Below are positions 2,079-61,840 of a stretch of DNA of 64,000 nt, in pieces. Position numbers and translations under genes: made by a program. Location of the stretch: assembly GCA_964016885.1 (NCBI GenBank), contig OZ024741.1, forward strand, positions 343,542,001-343,606,000, read 5' to 3'. Below the pieces are notes generated by a model. It had not been told where the DNA came from, did not search any database, and saw only the letters and a list, made by a program, of their open reading frames with translations. This DNA is from Eledone cirrhosa. Its lineage: Eukaryota. Each line of letters starts with the position of its first letter. Position 1 is the stretch's first letter.

Positions 2079-5000
2079 ATGACCTCACTCAAAATAGGCA
2101 GCATAAATGCGCGTGGCTTGGGACGTCATGGAAGCAGAGTCACTTGCTCAACGACCTCAGGTCACTAAACATAGATGTAGTGGCCATCAGCGAGACCAGA
2201 ATCTCCGAAGCACGGGCTTTCGCACCGATCTTCGGCGGCTACGATGTGTACGCATCTCCCAGCCGTCCTGGATCGGGGGGGGGGGAGTTGCTGTGTTTTT
2301 CTGAAAGGTTTGGATCTCGCCATACGGGCCATCTTCCTGGATGCAGAGGGTAATGGTGGTGCTGGACGTGACCAGCGGAGAGGGGCAAGCTTTCAGGCTA
2401 GTGGCCGTCTATGCCCCGACAGGAGCACGGCGGCCTGATTTCTTCCGGCGTCTGAAGACCTTTCTTGGAACGTCCCGCTCTTTAGTGTTAGTGGGCGACT
2501 GGAACGGGATCTTAGATGCACGCTGGGACTGTGTGGGATTAGCGGATAGGGTGGAGGGTGCAAGAGCCTCACCAACCTGCTCAGGCGTTTTGAACTGTCT
2601 GACAGGTACCGATTGGATTTCCCGAATGTGCCAATGTGGACTTGTACAAATCGCATAGGGTCATCCAGGTCATATGTAGATAGAGTATTTTGTAGGGAAA
2701 TAGATAGGTCTAGCATAGGCTGTCCACAATTCAAGATAGTCAGCTACACGGACCACAAATTCGTGATCTGTGTGCTTGACTTAGATAGGCTTCATAGACG
2801 AGGACCCGGCTACTGGAAGCTAAACGCGTCCTGACCAGCGCGCAAGGCCTACAGAGACAGGATTAGCGAACTAGATAAGCAGGCGTTGACGGGGAGCATC
2901 GTCAACAATAAGTGGTGGTTTGCTCTGAAAAGAGCGATTAGAATAGAATCCATTAGGTTTAGTAAGGCTCTAGCAATAGAGAAAAATAGAGCAGAGGGAG
3001 AACTAGTTAGAAAATTGGACAGGGCGCTTAGCAAAGGCATCCCGACCGACGTGCTTGCGGCGAAATTGGCCCTTGACCAATTCTTCAAAGCAAAGCACGA
3101 AGGTTGCGTTGTCAGAGCTAGGGTGCGTGCTCTCAGACCCGAGGGGACGAAAGCCGTTCAATGGGCCCAAGTGGCGGAGGCGCTTCGTGGCAACAAAGCC
3201 ACGTCCGGTCTTTGGTGGACCACGACGGGCGCATGCTACTCGATCCCGGGCAAATGTGTGAAACTTTTCAGCGACACTTCGCTCAGCTGTTCGGGGGCAG
3301 CGGTGGGCCGGATCGAGGGATGGACTTTAGTGTCTACCTCGACGGACTGCCGCGGCTCTCGGCCACTGAGGCGGAGTGTTGTGAAAAGCCGATAACAGCC
3401 GCTGAAATACGGGATGCAATGACTGGCTGCACAAGGGGTAAATTGCCTGATTTGGATGGTCTGCCCTATGAACTTTACGTACAGATGCCAGACTTGTTGG
3501 GAGGCCTCTTGGCGGACGTCTACTGCAACTGGCAACAGAACGGGAGAATTCCCAGCTCTGTGAGCCGAGGAGCGGTGGTACTGCTGAGAAAGGATCCGAA
3601 CAAGGGGGCTAACATAGATAATTGCAGGCCCATAACTCTGCTAAACACAGAGTTCAAGATTTTGGCCAAGGTGCTAGCAAAGAGGTTGGCGCTTGTCGTT
3701 GGTGGTCTGGTGGGAGAGGCGCAGACATGCGCCATTCCCGACAGATCCATCCACGACAACCTCGACCTCATGCGATACATCGTAGAGAGGGTAGCTAGGG
3801 AACCTGGCACGGGTGGGTCTTTGATAAATTTAGATCAGTCGAAAGCTTTCGATAGGGTCGACCATCGTTACCTAGCGGCAGTATTGAGTGCGGCTGGCTT
3901 TGGGCCCGTCTTCAGAGGCTGGATCGCTGCCATGCACAGCGACAGCTGCTCTGTGGTGAGAGTGAACGGTCACCTTTCGGAACCGTTCAACATCATGCGC
4001 TCGGTCCGCCAAGGATGTCCCTCTCGTCTCTCTTGTATGTATTGACTCTCGAGCCATTACTGCACAAACTGGAGACGTTGAGGGCGTTCCCGCGCGAACT
4101 AGTATGCGGAAGATCCGTGTCAGCATATGCGGACGATGTCACCGTAGTGGTGTCGAACGCCAAACACATCGAGGCGATCGGCACTACACTAAGAGAATAC
4201 GAAGCGGTGACAGGAGCAATGATCAACCAGGAAAAATCAGTGGGCCTGCAGCTCGGCACCTGGTGAGGCAGGTCGATGCCGTCCAACAGCGTCGTCGGGC
4301 GCTGGACAGACGGACCGGTTAAATTGCTAGGGGTCTGGTTCGGTTCGGACCTCCAGACGGACAAAAACTGGGACGAGGTGACGAGCAGGGTGGCTTCTCT
4401 CACCCAGAAATGGGCGGAGAGGAAGCTATCCCTGAAAGGTCGAGCGGAGGTGGCTAACGCGTACATCGCGTCCGTCATCTACTACCGCCTGACCGTCGTA
4501 CCTTGTCCTAAGCCCCGCCTGACTGCGCTGGAGCGTTTGCCCTTTCGCTTTTTATGGAAGGAACGCGCTCCGATGGTCAGGCGGTCCATCTGCTGTCAAC
4601 ACCCGCTACGTGGAGGGCTGGACATGCCGTGGCTGATGATGGCCAGACACACGCTCAGGCTGCGACATCTCCACCTCTTCCTCGACGGTGATCAGGTGTG
4701 GTCGCCGTTTGCTAGACACGTCTTTCCCCAGCTCGTCTCCTTGACGGAGCTGCAGTCTGGGTCAAGCGAAGACCGAGAGGGAGCGCTTGGAAACTGGAAT
4801 GTTTTCAGGCGCTCACAACCCTCGACCAATCGGTCAATGTGATCGGTGGAAACTCCACCTTGGCGTTCTATAGAGGATTAGTGGAGGGGAAGAGCGACGA
4901 TGTACTTGGAGAAACTCTAGGCGTCGACGAAAATCAACTAGCCAATCTCTTCTGAAGGTCTCTCGGGCCGGGGCCTATGGACAACTTCCAGAAATCCCCG

Positions 5001-5795: not shown

Positions 5796-8700
5796 AGTTG
5801 CATTTATCTTGCTTTATGTTCATACGAGTTATCACCAAGTCACAACCAGTGACCTCAAGAGACAACAAGGTCCGCCATGTTCAAGAAAGAACATACATAC
5901 TCACACATGCATCTTTAATGTTTAGACTTGTGATGTACTTATATTGACAGAATCTTCCTTAGTATATGGGCAGTTCCCATTAGTACTATCTTTTGTATTT
6001 CTCCTATACGCGGGTTTCCTGGGATTTGCGATAAGTAATCATTAGACCCCTTAGGTATCATTCCCAGAGCGCCTACAACCACTGGTATTGTTTTAGTTCT
6101 CAATTTCCACATTTTTCCAATTTCTATCTCCAGGTCCTTATACTTGCTCAATTTTTCAAATGTTTTTATAGATACATTCTTGTCTATTGGAACAGACATA
6201 TCAATTAGCAGGCATACCCTCTTTTTAAAGTCCTTCAATATTATATCAGGTCTATTTGCATCTATTTTTCGGTCTGTTTGGATGCTGAAGTTCCACAAGA
6301 TTGAGATGTGATCTTTTTCAAGTATGGGAGGTGGTTGATGCTCCCACCAATTCTTTTGATGGGGAAGGTCAAAATGCTTACACATTATCCAATGTATGTA
6401 TTGTGCAGCTCTGTCATGCCTGTTTAGGTATTCGGTTGGAGCTATAGGACTGCACATTGAAATTACATGGTCAATGGTCTCTGGTTCTTTTTTGATATTA
6501 ACGGCATAATGGGCTGCATCCATTTTTTATTATGTTGGCTTGGTAATTTTTTGTTGGCAGAAACTGATCTTGTGCTGATATAATCAGTCCTTCAGTCTCC
6601 GATTTCAGTTCAGAGGATGCCAACAACTGATGGGTTAATGTTTTGTCAACATCAGGATTGTTAGCTCGCTCTGGGTATTTTCCATACAGAGGCTTTTCTT
6701 GCCATTTCTTAGCCAGTTTCTGTAGCAGTTCTTTCTTTGCAGTTACTTTTACCTGCTTTGCTTTTTCTGTGTTTTCCATTTCAGCAGTAAATGGGACTTC
6801 TGAAATGTGTAGTCCATTACTGTATCTTTGTGCATCTTTTGTAATGGAATATGATCTTTTGATGCTTTCGTGTTTCAAAACGAGTTTGATCATCCAATCA
6901 TGTGATTCCCTTAGATATGTAGATAATCCAATTGTTGCAGTTTTCAACGCATTGTCTAACTGGATTAAACTACGTCCTCCTTCTTTCTCAGGGAGATATA
7001 TTCTATTTATATCTGCCTTAGGGTGATGCATTCTGTGCATGGTTAAGAATTTTCGAATTTTTGTATCGAGCCTACGGATCTCTGTGCTTGACCAGTTGAT
7101 GACATTGTAACTGTAGGTTACTACTGGTATGGCAAGCGTGTTTATGGCATCGATCCTATTCCTTGCATTCAATTCCGTTCTTAAGATTGCTGTTACTCTG
7201 CGGTAACATTCCTTCCTTATCCTTTCCCTCATTGTCGAGTGCTTGATTCCGTCTCCTTCACAAACACCTAGATATTTGTAAGTTTTTTCTTGATCAAGTT
7301 CTCTTATCACGTTCCCCCGATCAAGATTAAAGTCTGAACTCTTCAGCAGCTTTCCTCTGGTGAACGTTGCTTTGGCGCATTTATCTAGTCCAAACTCCAT
7401 CATTTTAATGTCATCACTGAACTGCCCCACAGTGGATAATAGCCCTTGCAATTGTTCATCATTTTTTGCAAATAGTTTCAGGTCATCCATGTAGAACAAG
7501 TGATTAATGGTTTTGTCATAGGCTTTATATCCATTTTTTGTTTCATTGAGCATTTTACTTAATGGTATAAGTGCGATGCAGAATAAAAGCGGTGATAAAG
7601 AGTCACCCTGAAAAATTCCACAATTAATATTAACTTCTCCAGCTTCCAGTGATTTTGTTTCACTATTCAAAAGGAGTGTCGTTTTCCATGTCTTCATACT
7701 GAATGACAAAAACCTCCTGACAACGGGGGATATTTTGAAAATCTCTAAACATTTTTCAATCCAACTGTGTGGCAAACTATCGAATGCTTTTTTATAATCT
7801 ATCCAAGTAATCGATAGATTTTTGTGTCTATTATGACAATCTCCCAGTATCATTTTGTTAACCAGAAGCTGATCCTTACAGCCATATGAGCCTCGTTTAC
7901 ACCCTTTCTGCTCAATGGGAAATAGGTCATTTGTTATCAGGTGGTCATATGTGTATTCAGTTAGGACTGATGTTAAAATTTTATACATTGTGGTCAAGCA
8001 AGTTATCGGTCTGTAATTTCTGGGATTGTTTGTCTCATCATTCTTCGGAAGCAGGAATGTAATGCCGTTAACTAGCCATGAAGGTATCTTTTCTGGCTCC
8101 TTAACTATTTCATTGTAAAGTTGGGCTAACAGCTCATGAGACTCTGTGAAGGCATTTATCCAAAAGTTTTGTATTTTGTCTTTTCCTGGGGATTTCCATT
8201 TGCTGGTTTTTCTTAGAGCCAAGCGCAACTGTTCAACTGTTATATTTTCCCATGTTTGTTCCTCAAGGTGAGCTGTATCTTTCATTTGTCTGTCTATCCA
8301 TGGGGCATGTATGTTATGAACTTTTTCTTCGGCCCAGATCTTTTCCCAGAATTCTTGCACTTCCTCCTTGGGTGGTATTGATTTAGCAGTTATTGTTGAC
8401 TTACCAATTTTTCTGTAGAAGTTTCTTTGGTTGTTTTTGAACATATTATTGTCCTTATAGAATCTAGATCGTTTTTCAAAGCGCATTATACGAGCAGCTT
8501 TGGCCGACACTTTTTGCTTGATTATTTCTATCAGCATGTCTATGTCACATGTTGATTTTATACTGTACTTTTTTTTCAATTTTCTAAGTTTAATTTGTTT
8601 AATATGTTCACCTACTTTATAGTTTGTTAAAATTTCTATGTCAGATCGGAGAAGGTTTATTTGGCGATTGATGTTCTCTTGCCAAGTAGATTTCTTGTGG

Positions 8701-9780
8701 GAATTCCTTTGTATTTTCATCTTCACTCCACATAAGTGAGTGGTGACTTTAGCCGATGCATAATAGAGATGATTTAAATCAGTAATGTTTAGTTTGTTTG
8801 TGATGATAATGTTTTTGAGAATTATGTTAGTCTTGTGTATTATCTTTTGGTTCTGTTTGGAGTTCTGGATCTTAGGGAGGGTGTCTCGTTGCCCCATGTC
8901 AGATTCTTTCATTTTCATCCATTCGATCATAATTTCATCCTTCAAGTTGGCAAGTTCATTCTCATTCATTTCTTTATCATTTACGATCTCATTATTTTCA
9001 TTTGGAGTTTCATCCTGAGCATGCACTCCCTCCACTTTTTCGATCCTTTCTTTAATTTGTTCTGTTGCCAGTGATTCCGCCCCGCCCCAACCCTGGGATT
9101 CGAAGTGTTACAGTTTACCTCGTTTTCACTGACACATGTTTCATTTTCCCTTCGCTGACTTTGTGCTAATAGCTTGATCTGATCAATTTCTATATCAGTT
9201 AGTAACGTTTTCCTTACAATATTTCTTCGTATATTGGCTAAGTTTGTTACTGTCAATATAGCCTCTGTTTTCGGGATGTTTCTTTTTCCAGTTGATATAT
9301 GTCTGTTCTGTATTCGATGTATTTGATGGCTAGTACATGGCAGTGTAGAAAGCCTCAAGGACTTCTTTATTATCTTCCCTTGACCATTTTTCTCTCTTTT
9401 TCTTTGGATTTCTTGGTGGTGAGCATGGAGGGCCAACAGTAGGAGTATTCCGGTTATGGGAGGTCTCCAGCTCCGAAGTGATGGGAAGGTTTGAACCATT
9501 AGCTGATTTTTCGACCCCAGTCTGGTTCCTCTCTGAGGGACGCCGCCCTTTTTTACCCGGGTGACGGCCGATCCGGTATGAGATTTAATCATTAGACATT
9601 TACTTTATTTTGTCGCGTTTTATCCTTATCCGCCAAGGGGTAATCATTTCGTGTTACCACTTCTAGAACGAGTGTCAACTAAGACTAGAGGGGCCGTTCT
9701 CCCCTAGAGACACGGCTATTCCCCGCCGGCCGCCATCCCGGTATTTCTTGGTCACGGGGTTTTCTTTTTGTTGTTTTTTT
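5794..9780 (-). mobile_element. Dong/R4-clade RLE non-LTR retrotransposon (copy 1), near full length
   Basis: A single ORF broken by frameshifts (9592-8981, 9035-6498, 6523-5939). RT motifs DYKKAFDS, GIFQGDSLSPLLF and FYMDDLKL; CCHC (CR..ETIDHVISMC); RHD; RLE RPDIIL...IDMSVP...KLSKY. The 3' end runs into (TAA)n. Confidence 0.9.
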
Positions 9781-9979: not shown

Positions 9980-12780
9980 CCTTGAATCTCAGTCATTGAT
10001 GTTGGTTAACTGGAAAGTCCGTTGGAATGAATATCAAGCCACTACCTGCAGCCTCAGATATTCAGGACGTATCGGAGGGTTCTTGCTGTTCCAAGCAAGC
10101 ATGCCTTTTGAAGCGTTCCAAAAAGCGTGAAGGGGCCGATTTTCTTTAACCATCCCTGGAAACTTTTGGAGATAGTCCCCAGTGCGCCTATGACAATCGG
10201 GATCACTTTGACTTCATGGCAGTTCCAAATCCTTTTCACCTCCCACTTTAGGTCCTGGTATCGGTTAATTTTCTCCCTCTCCTTCTCTTGCACTCACGTG
10301 TCGAAAGGGCAGGCCACATCCACAATCAGACACGATCTTTTTTCTTTGTCCACAACCACCAGGTCAGGTCTATTGTGTTCCAGTTTTTTGTCCGTCTGTA
10401 TCCTAAAATCCCACAGCACCTTCACCTGATTGTTCTCCATCACCGCCTGTGGCCTATGCTCATACCATTTCTCAGAATGTGGTAAATTGTTTACTTTGCA
10501 CAGGTGCCAGTGGATCATCCTGCCCATCACATCGTGTCTCCAGCCCTTATAGTGGGTCTGGGCTAGGTGTTTACACTCGGACACAATGTGAGCCACAGTC
10601 TCCTCTCTCTCTCCACAGATCCTGCACTGTGGGCTAGCCTCCTCCTTGTAAATATGGTGCTTCAACCACTTCGTTTTGAGGGCCTGCTCCTGCGCAGCCA
10701 TTAGCATTCCTTCTGTAGCCTTTTTGAGGTCTCCTCTTCTCAACCAGTTCCATGTCTGTGGATCTCTAAATTCAGTTTTCTCAAAGAAGGTACTATGAAG
10801 GGATTTTCCCTTAAGGCTGCTCTTCCTCCTTGATGTTATTTCCTCCTTGGACATCCCCTGGCCTACTGTCCCCTCCTTCAGTACAGTTCTGAACATTGGC
10901 TCCTTACTATAGGTCACGTATTTGTATAGGTTGTTTTTCTCCATCTGAACACAGTCCTCTATGCTGATAAGACCTCTTCCACCCTCAGATCTCCTTAGGT
11001 AGAGTCTATCGACATCACTCCTCTTGTGGAACATGTTGTAGATAGTCAATAGCTTCCTAGTCTTCCTATCCATTTCTTTTTTTAGCAACATTCCATCTCA
11101 GAATTCCCGCACTGTACCTAATAATAGACACAGCTCGGGAATTTACTGCGCTTATGGCATTTCTGCTGTTCAGATGTGACTTCAATACACTCCTTACTCT
11201 CCGAATGTATTCAGTTCTTAACAATTCCTTCATTTTTTTGTTCTTTATGCCATCAGCCTCCAGAACGCCCAAATACTTGTATCCTTCCTCAGAGTCAATT
11301 TCCTTTATCATCTCACCTGTTGGTATATGGATCCCGTTACTTCTGCTCAACCTACCCCTCCTCATCACAATGACTCCACATTTACTAATACCAAACTGCA
11401 TACATATATCACTGCTGAAAATACGGACAGTGTTAACAAGCACATCCAACTCCTTCTCACTTTTCACGAAGAGCTTAAGATCGCCCATGAAGAGGAGGTG
11501 ATTGATGTTAAGCTCTCCCTTTCCCAACTTGTATCCTGCTCTCACTTTTCGCAGCATAATGGTCAAGGGCATCAGGGCAAGGACAAACAACAGAGGGGAC
11601 AGGCTATCTCCCTGGAAGATACCTCTCTTGATCTTCACGCTTCCCAAGGATACTCCAGTTGATGTCAACTCTGTCTCCCAAGACCCCATACTCCTGCCCA
11701 GCAACTGTCTGATGTTATCTGCCACCCTGAATATCTCCAGGCTTTTGGTGATCCAAGAATGAGGCACCATGTCAAATGCCTTTCTGTAGTCTATCCATCC
11801 TATGGCAAGATCAGTGTGTCTCCTCCTGCAATTCCCCATTACCATCTTATCAATAAGTAACTGGTCCTTTGTACCACGTGACTTCTTTCGGCATCCTTTC
11901 TGTTCGTCCGGTAACAAGTTGTTTGTGTGGAGGTGATGGTAGATTTCTTCAGACACAATGCTCGTCAACAGTTTCCACATTACGGACTGACATGTGATAG
12001 GTCTATAGTTGGTAACATCATTACCCTTGATTCGGTCTTTCATTATCAGAACTGTGGTACCTTTTGTCAACCACTCTGGCACCTCACCCGACACCAAGCA
12101 GTCATTGAACATGGCCGTCAGCTTCGGGTGGAGGGATGTTAAATTTTTAATCCAATACCCCTGCACACCATCTGGGCCTGGTGATTTCCAGTTGGTTAGT
12201 TTTTTGGCCTGCCCATTAAGAGTTTCAACTGTGATACTCAAATCAGTTTGTTGGTGTGCCTGCTCACCGAACTCCCTCTGTACTGTCTCAATCCACCCTG
12301 CCTGGACATTATGTCTAACACCCTGCTCCCATATTCCTCTCCAGAATGTTTTAGTTTGCTCCGCCCCAGGGATCAAGTCGTTGCCTCTTTCTTTCCCCTC
12401 AAGCTGTCCAAACAGCATCTTCTGGTTGTTGTCGAACATGCGGTTCTGTTTATACTGACTGACTCTGTTCTCGTATCGCCTGATTTTTGCACTCTTTGCT
12501 ACAATGCGTTGCTTCAGTTCCTCTATGATAATATTTAGCTTTTCCTCCTAGTTTTGTACTTTATTTCCAGTCTATTTTTAGTGCCTATGTTTTTTAGTGT
12601 CCCATTCAGTAGTGACTCAAGCTTTCCTATGTCATTTCTCATTTCGCTGATTTGACCACTCAGTCGTTTCTTCCACCACGGCTCTGCTCTTTCTTGTCTG
12701 TTGTTTCCTCTCGCTTTTATACCAAGTAGTTTCCTCACCGTATTTGCTGTTGCTTTGAGGATATTGTTGCACTGGTGAAC
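9980..12780 (-). mobile_element. Dong/R4-clade RLE non-LTR retrotransposon (copy 2, different family), 5'-truncated
   Basis: RT motifs DYRKAFDMVPH, GIFQGDSLSPLLF and LFMGDLKL (catalytic D lost); CRICG..ETVAHIVSEC; RHD; RPDLVVVD..DVACP; EKINRYQDL. Flanked on both sides by (TAA)n (9944-9978, 12781-12846). Confidence 0.9.
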
Positions 12781-44048: not shown

Positions 44049-44140
<92 letters not shown>

Positions 44141-44145
44141 GTATG

Positions 44146-44179
<34 letters not shown>

Positions 44180-44600
44180 TGTATGTATGTATATACAGAT
44201 ATACAGTGGCGGACTGGGTCTAAAAATATTGACTGCCAGGAGATGAAGGGGGCCCACCTACATATAGAATGCTATCATGTAATTTTTATAATGAATAAAT
44301 AAAATTTTCAAAAAATACATAAGTGGAAACAAAACAGTGTAATCAACTTTTTGCGGGAAAATATCTTACCTTCTTCAATAAAAAATAGGTATTTTGTGAA
44401 ATCCAGAGACTTTCAATAATTACCTTTGGTCTTTCACACTCACACTATATATATATATATATATAATAATAATATTATTTATAGTTATATATACACTATA
44501 TATAACTATAAACAGGAAAGGTCAGTATTTTATAACTACCTTATTACCAGTAAGAAAAATAGCTCAATGTAAATACATCAGATGTTTTACAAAACAGGAA

Positions 44601-45390
<790 letters not shown>

Positions 45391-45656
45391 CAATATATAT
45401 ATATAGTAATGGAAAAAATTTAACGAAATTTCATTTCTCACTCTTAGTACTCTTGTTACTTAAATATAAGTATGTATACGTACATACATATATGTATACA
45501 GACGTACAGTAGTATGTATATATATATACCTACATGCACATATATATATATATGTAGGTATGGATTTACCGAACATTTATTATAGTGCTCGGATGTTTGT
45601 AAACCAACATCCCGAATTAAGCCGTACACTGTTTAGCAACCAACGTTGCCCTTTTG

Positions 45657-45706
<50 letters not shown>

Positions 45707-45788
45707 CACCTTCACCACTAATTGATTTTACAGGTGTCTTTAACCCATTGGTACCAAAGATTATTTAGCCAGTAATTCATGTATGTGT

Positions 45789-45855
<67 letters not shown>

Positions 45856-46543
45856 GTAGAGCTATTTGCCCTATAATATATTTTGGTTCCTATTAATTCC
45901 TTGCGGAATTGATTGACAAAATGCTTAGCTTATTTCTTTTATTATTATTTTTTTAATTTCATTCTTTCTCTTAGACTTCGGGTATTCTTTGAAAGCTAAG
46001 CATTTGCCCCTAAGATACTACAGTGGGTCCTGCAATGCTACTGTGAGGTCCTGCAATGCTACCGTGGACCTCCTGGGGCCCATTTGCCATTGGGCAACCT
46101 GGCAACCTGGCCAGTCCACCACTGTATATATATATATATATATATATACATATTTCCACTCACTCCCTCTCTGTTTCTCCCCTTCTCACTTCCTCCCGTT
46201 CGTTAGTAGTGGGATTCTTTCTTTCTCACATCTCATTCACGTCGGCGGTCTGTTTTCTGACCGTTCATGAAATTCTCCCAGCTTATGCTGACCGGATAAC
46301 CATCATGTTGCTTGCTTTTCTCCTACCTTCGGTTTACTTTTCCTTCTATGTTGTTTACTTGTCTCACTCGCTTTACGCGATTCACTTGTCCCAATAGCTT
46401 ATTTTAGTTATTGCTCGCACCAACCTGAGGTATATGATTTTTAATGCGATGAAATACCAATGATGGTTGGCAAATCACTGATGAGGGACTAATTTTATAA
46501 TATGTAACCCATGTGCAACCACGCAGTTTTCCTCTTTCTTCCC

Positions 46544-46645
<102 letters not shown>

Positions 46646-46647
46646 TG

Positions 46648-47487
46648 TTTTCTCTTTCTCTTAATTTTGAGTATATTTTTTTGACCGGCCACTCTCCTGG
46701 TGGCAAGGTTGTAAAAGAAAAGAAATTGTCATCCCTTGAATCGCAAGAATGTTTTGCAAATTTTGAAGGTGCCAGCTATCGCAGCCATTTGTAGACTATG
46801 AATTAGGGAGCTGCGCTTTTTTTCCGCAAATCCAAGTTCAGTCATACTTTGGTCCAAGCGGGTTGGTATATAACCCGTAGCACCAATAATGATGGGTATG
46901 AAGCTAAAGGTGTATCTTGGATACTGGATTTGTAAACTCCTCATCAATGGTCCGTAGATGTCCTCCTTCTCCTGTATTTTTCTGACAACGTTTACATCAA
47001 GTGGGCAACTGATCTCCACAACAGAACACGTTTTCAATGTGTGGTCCCAAACTACAATATCAGGCCGGTTGTGCTTTAATCTGGTGGCAGTTTTTATTTT
47101 CAGGTTCCACCAGTATTCCTTAGTGCCATCTGTCTCAATATATTCTTCCTCGTTTGTTATTAATTTTGTTTTCCGAAGTGCGTTCCAGATGGTTCTAGCT
47201 ATCCCATCGTGTCTCATGGGGAGGTAGTAGCGAGATGACATTCTTTCGCAGCTGGCAACAATGTGGCTTACATCCTCGATCTTTGTTTTACATAGCCTAC
47301 ATTTATTGTCAGCTGCTGGCCCTCCTCTTTTGTGCAGCAGATATTTGGTAGGGAGTTCTTGTTCCTGTATTGCATAGAGATATCCCTCAAGGTGTGATGT
47401 CATAAACTTGTCGGAACTCCATGCCAGGCTTTTTGAGTGGTTTATCCCCTCTATGGTCTGTGTTTTACGCCTCAAGTATCCATGCAC
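46648..47487 (-). mobile_element. 5'-truncated RLE non-LTR element in (TATG)n, copy 1
   Basis: Open 252 aa frame with CRLC..EDVSHIVASC, RHD and RPDIVVWD..VVEISCP..KEDIY, a short 3' UTR, then (CATA)n. Confidence 0.9.
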
Positions 47488-48615
47488 ATGTATGTATGTA
47501 TGTATGTATGTATGTATGTATGTATGTATGTATGTATGTATGTATATACAGTGGCGGACTGGGTCTAAAAATATTGACTGCCAGGAGATGAAGGGGGCCC
47601 ACCTACATATAGAATGCTATCATGTAATTTTTATAATGAATAAATAAAATTTTCAAAAAATACATAAGTGGAAACAAAACAGTGTAATCAACTTTTTGCG
47701 GGAAAATATCTTACCTTCTTCAATAAAAAATAGGTATTTTGTGAAATCCAGAGACTTTCAATAATTACCTTTGGTCTTTCACACTCACACTATATATATA
47801 TATATATATAATAATAATATTATTTATAGTTATATATACACTATATATAACTATAAACAGGAAAGGTCAGTATTTTATAACTACCTTATTACCAGTAAGA
47901 AAAATAGCTCAATGTAAATACATCAGATGTTTTACAAAACAGGAATATAAATTACACAATAATCAAAACTATGTTCAAATAATTTTATTGCTGACAATCG
48001 TTTCTTCCAAACTTTTGCTCGTGTTCTTCGGAGCTTTAGCAAAGTTTGGACATATAATTAACTTCCTATTCAACTGAACAATCATAGATACATGGATATT
48101 AATGTTGTCATCAACAGTTTCGTATTTACAGAGTGGAATGGATGTGACAGAGATTACAAGAGAATAGTATAATAATTAAAGCAGTATAGAGAGTGCAAGT
48201 GCGTTAGGCATATACAGGACAGTTAGGTAGGAAAACAAGCAATGATACTAGGTATATATAATTACTGCATGGCAAAAGAATCGCATAAAATAACATAGGT
48301 TTACAAGCATATAAAGCAGGCAAAGGTGTTTGTGTATTAAAATCATGAGTTTATGGTGAATGTAGTGTGATAATTATTTCTGTAATGTTCAGATGTGCGT
48401 GTGTTGAGAGTATTATTATTATTATTGTTATCACTCTGTAAATACGAAACTGTTAATGACAACATTAATATCCATGTATCTATATGATTGTTCAGTTGAA
48501 TAAGAAGTTATTTATATGTCCAAACTTTGCTAGTGCTCCAAAGATGTCAAACGAAAGCTTGGAAGAAACGATTGTCAGCAATAAAATGATTTGAACATAG
48601 TTTGATTATTGTGTA

Positions 48616-48721
<106 letters not shown>

Positions 48722-48987
48722 CAATATATATATATAGTAATGGAAAAAATTTAACGAAATTTCATTTCTCACTCTTAGTACTCTTGTTACTTAAATATAA
48801 GTATGTATACGTACATACATATATGTATACAGACGTACAGTAGTATGTATATATATATACCTACATGCACATATATATATATATGTAGGTATGGATTTAC
48901 CGAACATTTATTATAGTGCTCGGATGTTTGTAAACCAACATCCCGAATTAAGCCGTACACTGTTTAGCAACCAACGTTGCCCTTTTG

Positions 48988-49035
<48 letters not shown>

Positions 49036-49117
49036 CACCTTCACCACTAATTGATTTTACAGGTGTCTTTAACCCATTGGTACCAAAGATTATTTAGCCA
49101 GTAATTCATGTATGTGT

Positions 49118-49172
<55 letters not shown>

Positions 49173-49441
49173 GTAGAGCTATTTGCCCTATAATATATTT
49201 TGGTTCCTATTAATTCCTTGCGGAATTGATTGACAAAATGCTTAGCTTATTTCTTTTATTATTATTTTTTTAATTTCATTCTTTCTCTTAGACTTCGGGT
49301 ATTCTTTGAAAGCTAAGCATTTGCCCCTAAGATACTACAGTGGGTCCTGCAATGCTACTGTGAGGTCCTGCAATGCTACCGTGGACCTCCTGGGGCCCAT
49401 TTGCCATTGGGCAACCTGGCAACCTGGCCAGTCCACCACTG

Positions 49442-49472
<31 letters not shown>

Positions 49473-49862
49473 TTCCACTCACTCCCTCTCTGTTTCTCCC
49501 CTTCTCACTTCCTCCCGTTCGTTAGTAGTGGGATTCTTTCTTTCTCACATCTCATTCACGTCGGCGGTCTGTTTTCTGACCGTTCATGAAATTCTCCCAG
49601 CTTATGCTGACCGGATAACCATCATGTTGCTTGCTTTTCTCCTACCTTCGGTTTACTTTTCCTTCTATGTTGTTTACTTGTCTCACTCGCTTTACGCGAT
49701 TCACTTGTCCCAATAGCTTATTTTAGTTATTGCTCGCACCAACCTGAGGTATATGATTTTTAATGCGATGAAATACCAATGATGGTTGGCAAATCACTGA
49801 TGAGGGACTAATTTTATAATATGTAACCCATGTGCAACCACGCAGTTTTCCTCTTTCTTCCC

Positions 49863-49964
<102 letters not shown>

Positions 49965-49966
49965 TG

Positions 49967-50806
49967 TTTTCTCTTTCTCTTAATTTTGAGTATATTTTTT
50001 TGACCGGCCACTCTCCTGGTGGCAAGGTTGTAAAAGAAAAGAAATTGTCATCCCTTGAATCGCAAGAATGTTTTGCAAATTTTGAAGGTGCCAGCTATCG
50101 CAGCCATTTGTAGACTATGAATTAGGGAGCTGCGCTTTTTTTCCGCAAATCCAAGTTCAGTCATACTTTGGTCCAAGCGGGTTGGTATATAACCCGTAGC
50201 ACCAATAATGATGGGTATGAAGCTAAAGGTGTATCTTGGATACTGGATTTGTAAACTCCTCATCAATGGTCCGTAGATGTCCTCCTTCTCCTGTATTTTT
50301 CTGACAACGTTTACATCAAGTGGGCAACTGATCTCCACAACAGAACACGTTTTCAATGTGTGGTCCCAAACTACAATATCAGGCCGGTTGTGCTTTAATC
50401 TGGTGGCAGTTTTTATTTTCAGGTTCCACCAGTATTCCTTAGTGCCATCTGTCTCAATATATTCTTCCTCGTTTGTTATTAATTTTGTTTTCCGAAGTGC
50501 GTTCCAGATGGTTCTAGCTATCCCATCGTGTCTCATGGGGAGGTAGTAGCGAGATGACATTCTTTCGCAGCTGGCAACAATGTGGCTTACATCCTCGATC
50601 TTTGTTTTACATAGCCTACATTTATTGTCAGCTGCTGGCCCTCCTCTTTTGTGCAGCAGATATTTGGTAGGGAGTTCTTGTTCCTGTATTGCATAGAGAT
50701 ATCCCTCAAGGTGTGATGTCATAAACTTGTCGGAACTCCATGCCAGGCTTTTTGAGTGGTTTATCCCCTCTATGGTCTGTGTTTTACGCCTCAAGTATCC
50801 ATGCAC
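49967..50806 (-). mobile_element. RLE fragment, copy 2
   Basis: Same 252 aa translation as copy 1. Confidence 0.9.
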
Positions 50807-51934
50807 ATGTATGTATGTATGTATGTATGTATGTATGTATGTATGTATGTATATATGTATGTATATACAGTGGCGGACTGGGTCTAAAAATATTGACTGC
50901 CAGGAGATGAAGGGGGCCCACCTACATATAGAATGCTATCATGTAATTTTTATAATGAATAAATAAAATTTTCAAAAAATACATAAGTGGAAACAAAACA
51001 GTGTAATCAACTTTTTGCGGGAAAATATCTTACCTTCTTCAATAAAAAATAGGTATTTTGTGAAATCCAGAGACTTTCAATAATTACCTTTGGTCTTTCA
51101 CACTCACACTATATATATATATATATATAATAATAATATTATTTATAGTTATATATACACTATATATAACTATAAACAGGAAAGGTCAGTATTTTATAAC
51201 TACCTTATTACCAGTAAGAAAAATAGCTCAATGTAAATACATCAGATGTTTTACAAAACAGGAATATAAATTACACAATAATCAAAACTATGTTCAAATA
51301 ATTTTATTGCTGACAATCGTTTCTTCCAAACTTTTGCTCGTGTTCTTCGGAGCTTTAGCAAAGTTTGGACATATAATTAACTTCCTATTCAACTGAACAA
51401 TCATAGATACATGGATATTAATGTTGTCATCAACAGTTTCGTATTTACAGAGTGGAATGGATGTGACAGAGATTACAAGAGAATAGTATAATAATTAAAG
51501 CAGTATAGAGAGTGCAAGTGCGTTAGGCATATACAGGACAGTTAGGTAGGAAAACAAGCAATGATACTAGGTATATATAATTACTGCATGGCAAAAGAAT
51601 CGCATAAAATAACATAGGTTTACAAGCATATAAAGCAGGCAAAGGTGTTTGTGTATTAAAATCATGAGTTTATGGTGAATGTAGTGTGATAATTATTTCT
51701 GTAATGTTCAGATGTGCGTGTGTTGAGAGTATTATTATTATTATTGTTATCACTCTGTAAATACGAAACTGTTAATGACAACATTAATATCCATGTATCT
51801 ATATGATTGTTCAGTTGAATAAGAAGTTATTTATATGTCCAAACTTTGCTAGTGCTCCAAAGATGTCAAACGAAAGCTTGGAAGAAACGATTGTCAGCAA
51901 TAAAATGATTTGAACATAGTTTGATTATTGTGTA

Positions 51935-52042
<108 letters not shown>

Positions 52043-52310
52043 CAATATATATATATATAGTAATGGAAAAAATTTAACGAAATTTCATTTCTCACTCTTA
52101 GTACTCTTGTTACTTAAATATAAGTATGTATACGTACATACATATATGTATACAGACGTACAGTAGTATGTATATATATATACCTACATGCACATATATA
52201 TATATATGTAGGTATGGATTTACCGAACATTTATTATAGTGCTCGGATGTTTGTAAACCAACATCCCGAATTAAGCCGTACACTGTTTAGCAACCAACGT
52301 TGCCCTTTTG

Positions 52311-52346
<36 letters not shown>

Positions 52347-52428
52347 CACCTTCACCACTAATTGATTTTACAGGTGTCTTTAACCCATTGGTACCAAAGA
52401 TTATTTAGCCAGTAATTCATGTATGTGT

Positions 52429-52481
<53 letters not shown>

Positions 52482-53165
52482 GTAGAGCTATTTGCCCTAT
52501 AATATATTTTGGTTCCTATTAATTCCTTGCGGAATTGATTGACAAAATGCTTAGCTTATTTCTTTTATTATTATTTTTTTAATTTCATTCTTTCTCTTAG
52601 ACTTCGGGTATTCTTTGAAAGCTAAGCATTTGCCCCTAAGATACTACAGTGGGCCCTGCAATGCTACTGTGAGGTCCTGCAATGCTACCGTGGACCTCCT
52701 GGGGCCCACTTGCCATTGGGCAACCTGGCAACCTGGCCAGTCCACCACTGTATATATATATATATATATACATATTTCCACTCACTCCCTCTCTGTTTCT
52801 CCCCTTCTCACTTCCTCCCGTTCGTTAGTAGTGGGATTCTTTCTTTCTCACATCTCATTCACGTCGGCGGTCTGTTTTCTGACCGTTCATGAAATTCTCC
52901 CAGCTTATGCTGACCGGATAACCATCATGTTGCTTGCTTTTCTCCTACCTTCGGTTTACTTTTCCTTCTATGTTGTTTACTTGTCTCACTCGCTTTACGC
53001 GATTCACTTGTCCCAATAGCTTATTTTAGTTATTGCTCGCACCAACCTGAGGTATATGATTTTTAATGCGATGAAATACCAATGATGGTTGGCAAATCAC
53101 TGATGAGGGACTAATTTTATAATATGTAACCCATGTGCAACCACGCAGTTTTCCTCTTTCTTCCC

Positions 53166-53267
<102 letters not shown>

Positions 53268-53269
53268 TG

Positions 53270-54109
53270 TTTTCTCTTTCTCTTAATTTTGAGTATATTT
53301 TTTTGACCGGCCACTCTCCTGGTGGCAAGGTTGTAAAAGAAAAGAAATTGTCATCCCTTGAATCGCAAGAATGTTTTGCAAATTTTGAAGGTGCCAGCTA
53401 TCGCAGCCATTTGTAGACTATGAATTAGGGAGCTGCGCTTTTTTTCCGCAAATCCAAGTTCAGTCATACTTTGGTCCAAGCGGGTTGGTATATAACCCGT
53501 AGCACCAATAATGATGGGTATGAAGCTAAAGGTGTATCTTGGATACTGGATTTGTAAACTCCTCATCAATGGTCCGTAGATGTCCTCCTTCTCCTGTATT
53601 TTTCTGACAACGTTTACATCAAGTGGGCAACTGATCTCCACAACAGAACACGTTTTCAATGTGTGGTCCCAAACTACAATATCAGGCCGGTTGTGCTTTA
53701 ATCTGGTGGCAGTTTTTATTTTCAGGTTCCACCAGTATTCCTTAGTGCCATCTGTCTCAATATATTCTTCCTCGTTTGTTATTAATTTTGTTTTCCGAAG
53801 TGCGTTCCAGATGGTTCTAGCTATCCCATCGTGTCTCATGGGGAGGTAGTAGCGAGATGACATTCTTTCGCAGCTGGCAACAATGTGGCTTACATCCTCG
53901 ATCTTTGTTTTACATAGCCTACATTTATTGTCAGCTGCTGGCCCTCCTCTTTTGTGCAGCAGATATTTGGTAGGGAGTTCTTGTTCCTGTATTGCATAGA
54001 GATATCCCTCAAGGTGTGATGTCATAAACTTGTCGGAACTCCATGCCAGGCTTTTTGAGTGGTTTATCCCCTCTATGGTCTGTGTTTTACGCCTCAAGTA
54101 TCCATGCAC
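53270..54109 (-). mobile_element. RLE fragment, copy 3
   Basis: Same 252 aa translation as copy 1. Confidence 0.9.
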
Positions 54110-55237
54110 ATGTATGTATGTATGTATGTATGTATGTATGTATGTATGTATGTATATATGTATGTATATACAGTGGCGGACTGGGTCTAAAAATATTGAC
54201 TGCCAGGAGATGAAGGGGGCCCACCTACATATAGAATGCTATCATGTAATTTTTATAATGAATAAATAAAATTTTCAAAAAATACATAAGTGGAAACAAA
54301 ACAGTGTAATCAACTTTTTGCGGGAAAATATCTTACCTTCTTCAATAAAAAATAGGTATTTTGTGAAATCCAGAGACTTTCAATAATTACCTTTGGTCTT
54401 TCACACTCACACTATATATATATATATATATAATAATAATATTATTTATAGTTATATATACACTATATATAACTATAAACAGGAAAGGTCAGTATTTTAT
54501 AACTACCTTATTACCAGTAAGAAAAATAGCTCAATGTAAATACATCAGATGTTTTACAAAACAGGAATATAAATTACACAATAATCAAAACTATGTTCAA
54601 ATAATTTTATTGCTGACAATCGTTTCTTCCAAACTTTTGCTCGTGTTCTTCGGAGCTTTAGCAAAGTTTGGACATATAATTAACTTCCTATTCAACTGAA
54701 CAATCATAGATACATGGATATTAATGTTGTCATCAACAGTTTCGTATTTACAGAGTGGAATGGATGTGACAGAGATTACAAGAGAATAGTATAATAATTA
54801 AAGCAGTATAGAGAGTGCAAGTGCGTTAGGCATATACAGGACAGTTAGGTAGGAAAACAAGCAATGATACTAGGTATATATAATTACTGCATGGCAAAAG
54901 AATCGCATAAAATAACATAGGTTTACAAGCATATAAAGCAGGCAAAGGTGTTTGTGTATTAAAATCATGAGTTTATGGTGAATGTAGTGTGATAATTATT
55001 TCTGTAATGTTCAGATGTGCGTGTGTTGAGAGTATTATTATTATTATTGTTATCACTCTGTAAATACGAAACTGTTAATGACAACATTAATATCCATGTA
55101 TCTATATGATTGTTCAGTTGAATAAGAAGTTATTTATATGTCCAAACTTTGCTAGTGCTCCAAAGATGTCAAACGAAAGCTTGGAAGAAACGATTGTCAG
55201 CAATAAAATGATTTGAACATAGTTTGATTATTGTGTA

Positions 55238-55345
<108 letters not shown>

Positions 55346-55613
55346 CAATATATATATATATAGTAATGGAAAAAATTTAACGAAATTTCATTTCTCACTC
55401 TTAGTACTCTTGTTACTTAAATATAAGTATGTATACGTACATACATATATGTATACAGACGTACAGTAGTATGTATATATATATACCTACATGCACATAT
55501 ATATATATATGTAGGTATGGATTTACCGAACATTTATTATAGTGCTCGGATGTTTGTAAACCAACATCCCGAATTAAGCCGTACACTGTTTAGCAACCAA
55601 CGTTGCCCTTTTG

Positions 55614-55649
<36 letters not shown>

Positions 55650-55731
55650 CACCTTCACCACTAATTGATTTTACAGGTGTCTTTAACCCATTGGTACCAA
55701 AGATTATTTAGCCAGTAATTCATGTATGTGT

Positions 55732-55782
<51 letters not shown>

Positions 55783-56466
55783 GTAGAGCTATTTGCCCTA
55801 TAATATATTTTGGTTCCTATTAATTCCTTGCGGAATTGATTGACAAAATGCTTAGCTTATTTCTTTTATTATTATTTTTTTAATTTCATTCTTTCTCTTA
55901 GACTTCGGGTATTCTTTGAAAGCTAAGCATTTGCCCCTAAGATACTACAGTGGGCCCTGCAATGCTACTGTGAGGTCCTGCAATGCTACCGTGGACCTCC
56001 TGGGGCCCACTTGCCATTGGGCAACCTGGCAACCTGGCCAGTCCACCACTGTATATATATATATATATATACATATTTCCACTCACTCCCTCTCTGTTTC
56101 TCCCCTTCTCACTTCCTCCCGTTCGTTAGTAGTGGGATTCTTTCTTTCTCACATCTCATTCACGTCGGCGGTCTGTTTTCTGACCGTTCATGAAATTCTC
56201 CCAGCTTATGCTGACCGGATAACCATCATGTTGCTTGCTTTTCTCCTACCTTCGGTTTACTTTTCCTTCTATGTTGTTTACTTGTCTCACTCGCTTTACG
56301 CGATTCACTTGTCCCAATAGCTTATTTTAGTTATTGCTCGCACCAACCTGAGGTATATGATTTTTAATGCGATGAAATACCAATGATGGTTGGCAAATCA
56401 CTGATGAGGGACTAATTTTATAATATGTAACCCATGTGCAACCACGCAGTTTTCCTCTTTCTTCCC

Positions 56467-56552
<86 letters not shown>

Positions 56553-56605
56553 CTGAACAAAAGAGAAAAACTAACACAGATATATACATATATGTGTTTA
56601 AATCT

Positions 56606-58043
56606 TACAGCGCCTTGGAATCATTTCGATATGCTGCCACCTGTGCCTCTGCAGCCTGATCTTCTAACCGCTGGCGCTTGTCTTTTCGACAGCTCTTCTT
56701 TACTTCCTTGTCAAGACGTCTGTACTCTTTGTCCACTTCCTTCCATTGCTGTCGAGTTTTGGTTTGATCTCTTTTGTTCTTAACATCCTTCCTCTTGTCA
56801 ATGAGATTCCATGAAGTACTGCTCATCCACTGTTCCCGGTTGGTCCCCCTTCTTCTACCAACAACTACATCAGCACTCGCCCTGACCGCCTGAGCAAACA
56901 TCTGCCACTGGTCTTCAGGGTTCTGTACGTGCTCTAGTTCTTGGAACATATTCCTGATCTCCAGGTAGAATCCCTCTGACGTGCCTTGGTCTTGCAGGCT
57001 TGCGACAGCATATGGCCTCACGGTCTTATTTGCTTTGTTCTTCTTCAAGCGGATTTTTCCAACCACAAGATGATGGTCAGATCCGACGTCTGCCCCACGT
57101 AGGTGCGAACATCCAAGAGAGAGGAACGCCACCTCGTGCCAATGCAGATATAATCAATCTTATTCCTGGTGTTGCCATCAGGGGAAGTCCATGTCATCTT
57201 GTGAATCCGCCTATGGGTGAAGAATGTATTCCCGATGGAGAGGTTGCTGATACTGCTCAGGGACAGCAACCGTTCCCCGTTGTTATTGGTGGAATCAGCT
57301 GAACCGTGGGAGCCAATGGCTGAATGCATTTCTCTCCTGTCTCCATATAGCTTGGCATTGAAGTCACCAATCACCAGCCTAATATCTGACCTGGGTGTTT
57401 CCTCTAGGACATCCTGTAGTTGGATAAATAAGGTATCCTTATCTTCATCTGAGGCAGCTTCAGTCGGGGCGTAGACTTGCACTACGGTCACCTTGGCTAA
57501 CCTTGTGCTCAACCTGGCAGTAATAATTCGTTCACTCACTGGCCTCGATCCCGCAAGAGACCGTGATACATCTCCGGTGAGGATGATACCAACTCCCTGG
57601 AGATGGTGGTCATCATCACCGGAGTAGAGAATAGTCATGTCTCCGCTGTCGAGTCGTCCCCGTCCTGTCCACCTCGTCTCGCTGATGCCCATGATGTCAA
57701 GGCGATATTCTCTCATCTCCTTCAGCACCTGCTCCATCCGCCCGTCCCTCTTTCGGGACGGGCGGATGGAGCGTGCGGACATTCCAGGTGCCTACACTTG
57801 TGTTTGATTTGGCGTTGAAGATAGGACTTATCCGCGGTCGGGTATCCTTTCGGCTTTGACCCAGCCATATCATAGGTGCATCCAGGGATGACGTGTCTTC
57901 TCTTACTCCGCCGCTGGGTATCAAAATGGTTTTTCTCGTCGTTTCTGTAGCGGTGAAACGTTTTTACGGGGGTAGGGCTGCTAACCCCACACCCCAACCT
58001 TCCTCTTTTCTCAACCGGGCTTTGGACCGGCTAAGGCGGAGTT
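56606..58043 (-). mobile_element. RTE-clade LINE 5' half (5' UTR and APE), inverted
   Basis: VGTWNVRTL, DIMGISETRWTG, VQVYAPT, IGDFNA, NKIDYI and VGSDH motifs. Ends at ...AAYRNDSKAL. Confidence 0.92.
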
Positions 58044-58044
58044 A
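57992..58044 (-). ncRNA. Twister ribozyme (P1 type), 3' cleavage-product portion
   Basis: U|AACUCCGCCUUAGCCGGUCCAAAGCCCGGUUGAGAAAAGAGGAAGGUUGG matches the twister pattern UAACUCYGCC..GCCGGUCCCAAGCCCGG..GAGGAGGG. P4 is UUAGCCGG/CCGGUUGA and P2 is CUC/GAG. Confidence 0.85.
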
Positions 58045-59692
58045 ATGATTCCAAGACGCCTGATTCTAAGGCAGATCGACATGATTCCAAGACGCTGTAC
58101 CGGATCGTCAGAGAGCTAACTGGAGGACGAAGTGGAAGCAGTTTGCCAATCAAGAGCAAAGATGGTCGGATGCTTGCAGCTAGTGAAGAGTAGGCCCAGA
58201 GGTGGAACGAACACTTTCGTGAGGTCCTCGATTAGCCATCCCCCAACACAGTCTTCGAGTTTGACTGGGAGGAAGCGAGCTACCGGCTGGATGTACGACT
58301 AGACGACATCACAAGAGCTGAGGTGGCCAAGGCCATCCGCTGCCAAAAGAATAACAAAGCGGCAGGACTGGATGAGATTCCTGCAGAGCTTTGAAGCACG
58401 GCAAGGATGTAATAGAGGACCAGCTCACCCATTTATGCAATGTGATTTGGCAAGAAGAGGAGGTGCCGGAGGACTGGATAAATGGAGTGATTGTACCACT
58501 ACTGAAGAAGGGCTGTCTCACGCTGTTATCAGTGCCAGGGAAGGTATTCTGCACAGTCATTCTGAACCGGCTGAGAGCAGAAGTAGATCGTCATTTTCGA
58601 GACGAACAGGCTGGCTTCCGCAGTTGAAGGTCTTGTTCAGAGCAGATCTTCACTCTCCGAAATATCATTGAACAATGTCGGGAGTTCCACAAGTCCCTTG
58701 TTGTCAACTACATTGACTTCAGGAAAGCTTTCGACAGTGTTCATCGGGAGTCATTGTGGAAGATTGTAAGACTCTACGGTGTCCGAGAGAAATATATTAA
58801 CATCTTCGGGTCGCTGTACCGACATTCCAGGTGTTGCGTTAGGACAAAGGACGGAAACACGGAAATGTTTGACATCTCGACGGGTGTTCGACAAGGCTGC
58901 ATCCTTTCGCTTTTCCTTTTCAAAATTGTCATCAATTTCATCATGAAGAAGACAATGAGTGACCCTCGTTTTGGAATTAGTCGGGATGGAAGGAGATTAA
59001 GCGACCTGGACTTTGCCGATGACATCGTAGTGATAGGCCATTCCCGAGAAAACCTGCAAGAGATGACAAACGTTCTAAATGACAATGCAGAGAAAGTTGG
59101 CCTGCGCATCAGTTGTGAAAAAACTAAGACCATGTCGACAGGTGACCCTCCAAATCCTCCCATCATGTTTGGTCAACGTAAGATTGAATGTGTAAACCAC
59201 TTCCAATACCTTGGCAGCAACATCTCTGACGATGGGGATGCTGAGGTGAATGTGCGCACAAGGCTGGGAAAAGCAGCGGCGGTCTTCCAGCGACTCCGTC
59301 CGGTATGGTCCAAGTGTTCCATCGGCAACGCCGTCAAATTCCGTGTTTACATGTCCATTGTAGTACCAACAGCGATATATGCCTGTGAGACATGGAAGAG
59401 TACGGAAAGTGTATGTAATAAGCTTGATATATTCCACCGTCGTTGCATTCGGACCATATTGAAAATTTCATGGGGAGACCAAGTTAGCAGCGAGGAAGTC
59501 ATGAGGAGGTCAGGATTGGAGAGGTTATGGGAAATTGTCCGGAAAAGGAGACGGCGGTTCGCCGGCCACATCCTTCGTTTGCCGGCAGATCGACCTGCTC
59601 ATATTGTCATGGATTGGGTACCAGAAGGTGGCAGGAGAGAACGGGGAAGAGAACGAAAAACATGGCGGAGCACATTCAGGGAAAGATTACAG
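58044..59692 (+). mobile_element. RTE-clade LINE 3' half (RT), decayed
   Basis: Starts at DSKTLYRIVRELTG. Motifs LLSVPGKVF, DEQAGFR, IDFRKAFDSVHRE, GVRQGCILS, DLDFADD, HFQYLGS, YACETW and FAGHILR. Confidence 0.92.
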
Positions 59693-59770
59693 GCACCTCT
59701 CGCCCAGGATTGAACCCAAGACCAGGATACCCACTGTCTCTAGTACCTACGGCTAGTCCACTGAGACAAC
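59693..59770 (-). mobile_element. tRNA-like (Ser-type) SINE head
   Basis: GTTGTCTCAGTGG...ACTAGAGA...GGGTTCAATCC with a long variable region. The cloverleaf is not intact. Confidence 0.4.
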
Positions 59771-59998
59771 TAATTCATACTTATAAAGCTACTTTCAAAA
59801 TTTTCAAAACAATATGATGTGGTGTCGTTCATGTCTTGCTTAATCATATTGCTCCTACTTAAGGTCGATTGTAAATCTTTTGAGTGTTCCATAAACTACA
59901 TCCTAGTTTTGTTTCTCATCTATCTAGAATATATTTTAACCTGTAATCAATGTTTCATTTCTGTTGCACCTCATTTCTCCCCCCCCTCTCTCTATCAA

Positions 59999-61024: not shown

Positions 61025-61840
61025 TATTCTAGGGCGGGTAAAATTCCCGAGATCCATGGACAAGTTCTCTCCAGCGGTCTCTGTCCCTCATTATCGCTGC
61101 CATGTCCTGCGTCTCCAACAGACCAGTGGCTGTCCTTAGGGCATCAACATACGTTAACCTTGGTCTTCCACTTCCAGTGTGTCCATGTAGGGGCTACCAC
61201 AAGAGCACTGAGTGCAATGTCAACTCTGAATATCGGTGAGCATGTCCAGCTAACCTCAGTCTCATCTGTGTCAATTTTGAGCTGACTTTTGGGAGGCTCC
61301 CATACAGCTCTGAGTTTTTCATCCTCAGTGTATACTGATTAATGTTCAGAGCCGTCCTCAGCATTCTCGTGTAGCACCCATCCACCATCTGAGTGAGTTC
61401 CTTGGTCAGTGTCCAAGTCTCAGATCCGTAAAGCAGCACAGACTCCACTACAGCAATGAAGAGACGGATTTTTAGATCTTTACGAAGGTCTGACTTCCAC
61501 ACCAATCTCAAGCTGTGGCAAGTCGCCCAGGCTTTGCTCTTCCTCTCAACCACACCATCTTCCGTATTCCCAATCTTTACTCCCAAATACAGAAAGCCCT
61601 CAACCAATTCTAGCGGCTTCCCGCCTTCATTAGTGATCCCCTCTGGCTTCTCAACATTCTCTTCCAGATATTTTGTTTTAGTCTCATTCATTCTCATCGA
61701 CACCGTCTTAACCTCCTGCATCAAATCCTTCACTGTATTTGTCACCAAAACTATGTCGTCGGCAAATTCAGCATCCGATATCTTTTTCGCCTTAACTATC
61801 CTGCTCTGAGCCGGTGCAACAGTAAAGCCACAGTCCTACC
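61025..61840 (-). mobile_element. RTE-type LINE 3' fragment
   Basis: EFADDIV, FLYLG, VESVLLYGSETWTL, RLRLAGH and GRPRLTYVDAL...MRDRDRWR motifs. Confidence 0.85.

Follow-up and report, generated by a model that had tools for sequence, protein, structure and literature searches.

The closest described systems to the locus analysed here are RTE elements headed by a twister ribozyme, a mini-twister lacking the P1 stem, and L1 insertions with an inverted 5′ end, the last reportedly described as products of twin priming by Ostertag and Kazazian in 2001. The T-variant twisters of Perere-3 from Schistosoma mansoni, which have been assayed (Liu et al. 2021, PMC8501958), contain the core strings AA CUCC GC ... 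CCG GUCCCAAGC CCGG ... GGAG GAGGG UUGG; the element starts at the AA, with host target DNA directly upstream, and has a single APE-RT frame. These traits are shared by the family reported below (family A), whose twister agrees with the Schistosoma table of PMC8501958 in its core pairs as well as in its catalytic positions. Unlike Perere-3, family A has a P3 shortened to a single pair that closes a 3-base loop, a preference for (TA)n targets and an (ACTAAG)n tail, as well as frequent 5′ inversions, of which the accessible part of PMC8501958 makes no mention for Perere-3. A review by de la Pena (2020; PMC7761336) states that RTE 5′ ends have kept twisters that are truncated yet catalytically competent and that likely process the element RNA out of upstream transcripts; the statement, as it appears there, rests on work ‘in preparation’ and comes without data or species, and family A provides a concrete case. 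The mini-twister without P1 (Kosutic et al. 2015, via PMC5408937) has a comparable core, for which one base upstream of the scissile bond is enough to cleave, but it is an engineered construct, whereas family A is a natural element and has different upstream bases at every insertion.

Twin-primed L1 insertions, following the model as given in PMC2912911 and PMC4245944, share with family A an inverted 5′ arm, an outer end lying near the start of the forward part, a target duplication and microhomology at the outer joint. Among 2068 human and chimpanzee L1 insertions 30.9% were inverted (PMC2912911), compared with 22 of 99 copies in family A; inversions were reported only with L1 in human cells, with a single Nimb-2 insert as the exception (PMC4245944). 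Family A differs from twin-primed L1 in being RTE-type, in its microsatellite tail, in residing in an invertebrate-like genome, and in having an arm that can end at a ribozyme cut site. A literature search joining twister ribozyme, octopus and retrotransposon returned nothing. Reports of frequent RTE inversion were sought by title or start of abstract, including passages of PMC6007223, PMC4476161, PMC4245944, PMC2912911, PMC5389967, PMC9115989 and PMC13295347, and none was found, a weak negative because a key comparative LINE study lies outside this coverage. A twister at the 5′ end of an RTE element is a known arrangement, and the ribozyme alone would be its ordinary extension to another animal lineage; the present addition lies in the twin-priming layout and in how often RTE-type families of this genome show it. 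The inversions bear on the timing of second-strand cleavage, and on the reason for the apparent restriction of 5′ inversion to mammalian L1.

The window (the whole 64-kb stretch of DNA that was analysed) contains a decayed copy of an RTE-type LINE, which has its first base where a twister ribozyme is predicted to cut and its front 1.4 kb in inverted orientation (Table 1). The endonuclease lies on the minus strand and the reverse transcriptase on the plus strand; the element is therefore split into two opposed halves. Alignment to L093, a full-length sister copy, placed element positions 1428 to 1 on window 56606-58043, so that element sequence ends at 58043, the A located 3′ of the predicted U|A bond, exactly where a first-pass annotation of this DNA had put the end. 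That annotation had also assigned the bases from 58044 onwards to the other half of the element, which required correction: they are re-copied filler, and the forward half starts further on, at 58071. In element coordinates the inverted arm ends at 1428 and the forward part begins at 1400, an overlap of 28 bases. The U at position -1 of the twister derives from the filler. Since the ribozyme end adjoins element-derived DNA and not host DNA, its position is no artefact of host-flank alignment.

Table 1. Parts of the decayed LINE copy and of its target in the window.
Feature	Position in window	Strand	Basis
Left target, abundant host repeat, cut at 56604	56542..56607	+	other copies of the repeat
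Inverted 5′ part (element positions 1-1428): 5′ UTR, endonuclease, start of linker	56606..58043	-	93.3% identity to sister copy L093
Open stretch, APE-type endonuclease	57045..57791	-	Pfam Exo_endo_phos, E 1.6e-9
Predicted hairpin directly behind the twister; occupies most of the would-be 3′ P1 strand	57968..57995	-	folding
Type-P1 twister core without 5′ P1 strand; begins at base 58043 (A on the 3′ side of the predicted scissile bond)	57994..58043	-	Rfam twister-P1 match
Filler of 27 bases at the inversion junction; two re-copied element pieces around positions 1410-1425	58044..58070	+	alignment to L093
Forward 3′ part, element positions 1400-3032 of 3157	58071..59682	+	92.8% identity to L093
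Open stretch, part of reverse transcriptase	58628..59713	+	Pfam RVT_1, E 6.5e-22

In 10 of 11 other copies of the repeat at the left target the sequence continues with GTA past the cut, and the antisense of the element at the break is also GTA; the outer joint is thus a 3-base microhomology, with one substitution (the window reads TTA). The target of the window copy is not a TA run. The last 125 bases of the element, with the (ACTAAG)n tail, are absent (the tail was searched for in the window and not found), and the right target duplication has been lost. The decay of this copy comprises three substitutions in the ribozyme core, a broken frame and the lost 3′ end. A high-copy repeat at window 59683-59790 lies directly at the cut 3′ end of the element. 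It carries on its minus strand what we take to be a tRNA-like B-box, and is probably a SINE that a later deletion joined to the element.

An Rfam search of the whole 64-kb window at gathering level gave no match. When the thresholds were relaxed for 57700-58300, twister-P1 (RF03160) at 57994-58048 on the minus strand headed the nine matches listed (40.1 bits, E 2.4e-7); this score, obtained for the window copy only and not for its intact sisters, is below the gathering score of 67.2. The minus-strand twister motif proposed earlier, quoted as 50 bases running from 58043 to 57994, is thus borne out by the Rfam model named for it, although at a score short of gathering level, while the motif limit given at 57992 lay two bases too far (the real limit is 57994). 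Matches to microRNA families at 57715-57788 were dismissed as chance; their source is a near-perfect G+C-rich hairpin at 57728-57775, at the start of the endonuclease region.

The scissile A and the general-base G of the twister are in place. In 25 family sequences, P2, P4 and both pseudoknots pair in 88-100% of cells per helix, and the named twister pairs taken together with the downstream hairpin are paired in 91.8% of the cells of the alignment (25 copies). Covariation was weak, with changes to both partners in 4 of 24 pairs (a value reached by 12 of 500 shuffles); this is expected of neutrally decaying copies, so that it adds little support. An extended P4 helix (CUUAG with UUGAG), favoured by plain folding in family A, was rejected because it is not kept in the diverged relative L115; a one-pair P3 was consequently assumed. 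All core tests were passed by six of 35 loci (L085, L086, L091, L093, L113 and L115), the window copy failing. Relative to its sister copies, the window copy has three substitutions, none of them mentioned in the first-pass annotation: C>A at 58023 together with G>A at 58000 alters a single pair of T1, the 3-bp pseudoknot, on both sides, and G>A at 58006 disrupts the final P2 pair; other sequencing runs show the family base at 58000 and 58006. As cleavage falls with imperfections in the corresponding pseudoknot (PMC11662667), the twister of the window copy is, by analogy, probably weakened or dead.

Searches of the same genome with the 5′ region of the element identified 34 other places, each of which was taken with 9.9 kb; 32 of them belong to family A, that of the window copy, and two (L113 and L115) are diverged relatives. 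Full-length family A copies are about 3157 bases long, end in (ACTAAG)n and are on average 92.3% alike (55 pairs). The element, of about 3 kb, has one APE-RT frame, the APE domain preceding the RT domain, and lacks ORF1; none of the 15 long copies examined retains the whole reading frame. Target duplications at non-repetitive sites are mostly of 7-13 bases, the peak for RTE elements being 10-12 (PMC4245944). Judged by architecture, tail and target duplications, family A would be an RTE-type non-LTR retrotransposon. This agrees with the host element suggested in the first-pass annotation for the 5′ twister, an arrangement that is in print for Perere-3 (PMC8501958).

A tally made by hand showed that 19 of the 33 family A loci, window included, start at position 1, the scissile A, and that 24 start within two bases of it. 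The other 14 start at position 2 (four loci, in TA-rich flanks where one A is possibly shared), 3 (one), 5 (two), 7-8 (two), 15-23 (three) or beyond 100 (two). When the upstream 300 bases of 22 copies were compared, only four matches appeared, all out of register; no common upstream sequence was found. The base at -1 of the 19 position-1 loci is T in 12, A in five, C in one and G in one. At the junctions of full-length L1 and SVA a G is reportedly left behind when the cap is copied (PMC2912911), so the lack of G at -1 fits an uncapped RNA. The pile-up at the scissile A and the scarcity of G favour the central idea of the earlier annotation, namely that a self-cleaved RNA had been retrotransposed.

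Another sample was anchored at the 3′ side by an exact 20-mer near the 3′ end (126 occurrences; the 100 listed were taken and 99 aligned). Nine of these 99 copies extend into the first 23 bases, five of them stopping at position 1, while the next-longest copy reaches position 115. The right flank is TA-rich in 56 of the 99, compared with 180 of 1900 background 20-mers, an excess indicating that family A favours (TA)n targets. In sequencing run X7, from organism C, 21 contigs depart from the element at 58041 into unlike sequence, which suggests that a related species has the same element 5′ end. Among the sequencing runs listed as containing the element none was of RNA, a result that carries no information about expression.

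The 5′ strand of P1 had been described as absent, and indeed no conserved one is found in the family alignment: the bases upstream vary between copies, as in the T-variants of PMC8501958. The 3′ strand, UUGG, is kept, and the 5′ strand comes from the target, whatever its sequence. A hairpin is predicted by folding 1-2 bases behind the pseudoknot, in family A as well as in L115, and absorbs the G run; in the family alignment 91.9% of its cells are paired and two of its 10 pairs changed on both sides. This hairpin may stack in place of P1.

Inverted copies account for 22 of the 99 members of the 3′-anchored sample (22 of 97 without L120 and L198, which are flank repeats of L118), one of the 22 being a complex fold-back. 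The outer end of the arm lies at most 60 bases from the forward start in 17 of the 22, and the arm reaches the 5′ end in only one. In most cases where the target is other than a pure TA run, a target duplication adjoins the inverted arm with an overlap of 1-4 bases (L085, L090, L129, L170, L172, L177, L196 and L199); these overlaps were read by eye and with no chance model, and L166 has none. Inverted sisters such as L085, L090, L129, L196 and L199 carry a target duplication around the whole insert, clear and of 9-11 bases in L085 and L090. No host DNA was present at the inner junctions of the copies examined. The inverted loci that bear the twister are seven (the window, L085, L088, L089, L090, L107 and the complex L114); four end exactly at position 1, as does the complex fold-back, and two end at 3 and 5, in a set found through 5′-end searches and therefore biased towards arms that reach the 5′ end.

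Three further families, whose clades we take from their motifs to be RTE-like, NeSL-like and L1/Tx1-like, were used as controls by inspecting the best 30 matches to a 270-base 3′ piece of each with 1.5 kb upstream. In the RTE-like family (family B; window 61030-61835) six of the 30 best matches were inverted, with the junction in view in 25; two more reverse matches (L223 and L241) were left uncounted. The RLE-type, NeSL-like family had no inverted copy among its 30 best matches (junction in view in 15), and neither had the L1/Tx1-like family among its own 30, a comparison of little power since the true 5′ junction was in view in only five. Counting junctions in view, inversions amount to 21 of 87 in RTE-type families and to 0 of 20 in non-RTE families (p 0.011), the samples being small and drawn differently. 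Inversion is as frequent in family B, the 5′ end of which lay outside the comparison, as in family A; a link between inversion and the twister was accordingly discarded. A link to TA-rich targets was discarded as well, such sites being found in 14 of 22 inverted copies and 42 of 77 others (p 0.48).

The reading that we prefer, with a probability of about 0.8, is that reverse transcription of a self-cleaved RNA started at both nicked target ends, that is by twin priming, and gave rise to the inverted, twister-headed copy in the window. For this copy, twin priming is inferred from its geometry and from one microhomology with a substitution. A source copy would be transcribed by read-through from host DNA, and the twister would cut the transcript one base upstream of AACUCC, leaving an uncapped RNA. 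One nick would prime at the (ACUAAG)n tail, with copying up to position 1400, while the end of the other strand would anneal by about three bases (GTA) near position 1430 and be extended to the physical 5′ end of the RNA. The two cDNA ends would then be joined with templated filler. A later deletion would have removed the 3′ tail and the right target copy, and point changes would have damaged ribozyme and frame.

A broader proposition is put forward with less assurance, as being somewhat favoured by the data: RTE-type LINEs of this genome would twin-prime in about one fifth of their insertions and neighbouring non-RTE families would not, so that twin priming would be no speciality of mammalian L1; inverted arms that reach fully would preserve, within the element and without host flank, the RNA 5′ end made by the ribozyme; and the conserved hairpin may replace P1, freeing cleavage from the site of insertion. 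An L1-like inversion rate in RTE elements, with non-RTE controls in the same genome, would tie the trait to the enzyme of the element and not to the mammalian cell. RTE proteins are encoded in a single frame and are easy to assay, and L115 offers both an intact frame and an intact twister core.

The position of the 5′ end could also reflect the start site of an internal promoter, the twister being a passenger or a translation element and not the cutter. Full-length LINEs with internal promoters likewise pile up at one base. Moreover, none of the cephalopod twister candidates tested in PMC11662667, as far as the accessible part of that source goes, was active. However, the end coincides with the scissile A in two families only 39-40% identical in protein and also in Perere-3 (PMC8501958), and the G expected from a cap (PMC2912911) is seen at -1 in one of 19 loci, which makes a promoter start improbable. 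Just as little weight is given to the inversion having occurred after insertion, by break repair or by recombination aided by self-complementary (TA)n flanks. The junction filler does resemble end-joining repair, TA-rich right flanks are in clear excess over background, and the window copy did undergo a later deletion; yet in copies with non-repetitive targets the outer break falls exactly at the target duplication, the inner junctions contain no host DNA, TA-rich sites have no excess of inverted copies, the window target is no TA run, and two non-RTE families lack inverted copies altogether. That the head-to-head layout arises from an assembly error joining two pieces is highly improbable: no listed contig of four sequencing runs crosses the junction, but the halves meet near one element position, with templated filler between them, and the same layout recurs in 22 of 99 sister copies.

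A further alternative concerns the activity of new copies, each of which, as the first-pass annotation had it, would require P1 to be rebuilt from host flank or from a 5′ duplication. According to PMC8501958, cleavage without P1 is inefficient and the 5′ strand of this stem is provided by target duplications, and one family A copy (L106) carries a tandem 5′ duplication of 99 bases. In contrast, a near wild-type cleavage rate without P1 is reported in PMC5408937, and imperfections in P1 are tolerated according to PMC11662667; most of the 3′ strand would, in addition, be occupied by the predicted hairpin. The search for complementary bases upstream disclosed no extra pairing: flanks match UUGG at 2.2 of four positions in 13 full-length, uninverted copies and at 2.0 in 67 truncated ones, a weak test because dead copies are not under selection, and one in which the reading of a single copy among the 13 was off by one base. 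Such a requirement for rebuilding is therefore considered unlikely, if less so than the alternatives above, and cleavage of an RNA lacking a conserved P1, followed by twin priming, is retained as the preferred reading.

The diverged relative L115 (L115:4501-7665; G000:C27) has an open frame of 1043 codons that encodes APE and RT domains; its protein is 39-40% identical to that of family A. It starts with AACTCC, all its tested core pairs are intact, and it sits in a TA run; a search for further copies in the genome returned L115 as its sole candidate. Most of its homologues are unnamed APE-RT proteins, and two are named craniofacial development protein 2(-like), which we presume to be RTE-derived. 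A third, diverged twister head, L113:4501-4600 (G000:C9), starts at AA and has no long frame behind it.

Several copies show unusual rearrangements. In L106 (4405-4600) the two units of the tandem duplicate both begin at the scissile A; a jump from one cleaved RNA template to another may account for the duplication. L114 (4470-4530; identical to L149) contains a twister fold-back, with positions 1-17 forward, 29 to 1 inverted, and then the element from position 230. L094 and L108 (the same as L169 and L212) have lost internal sequence, so that twister head and 3′ tail are joined. For organism C (run X7), read depth and loose ends at 57171 suggest an amplified element that consists of the first 870 bases plus the 3′ end.

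Other elements were noted in the window. A tandem array at 44139-56544 has a 3.3-kb unit in about 3.7 copies that are 97-99% identical, each with an open stretch bearing zf-RVT. Two RLE-type LINEs, presumably NeSL-like, are located at 5812-9604 and 10294-12547; the first is a member of a young family whose copies occupy (TAA)n runs and are often arranged in tandem.
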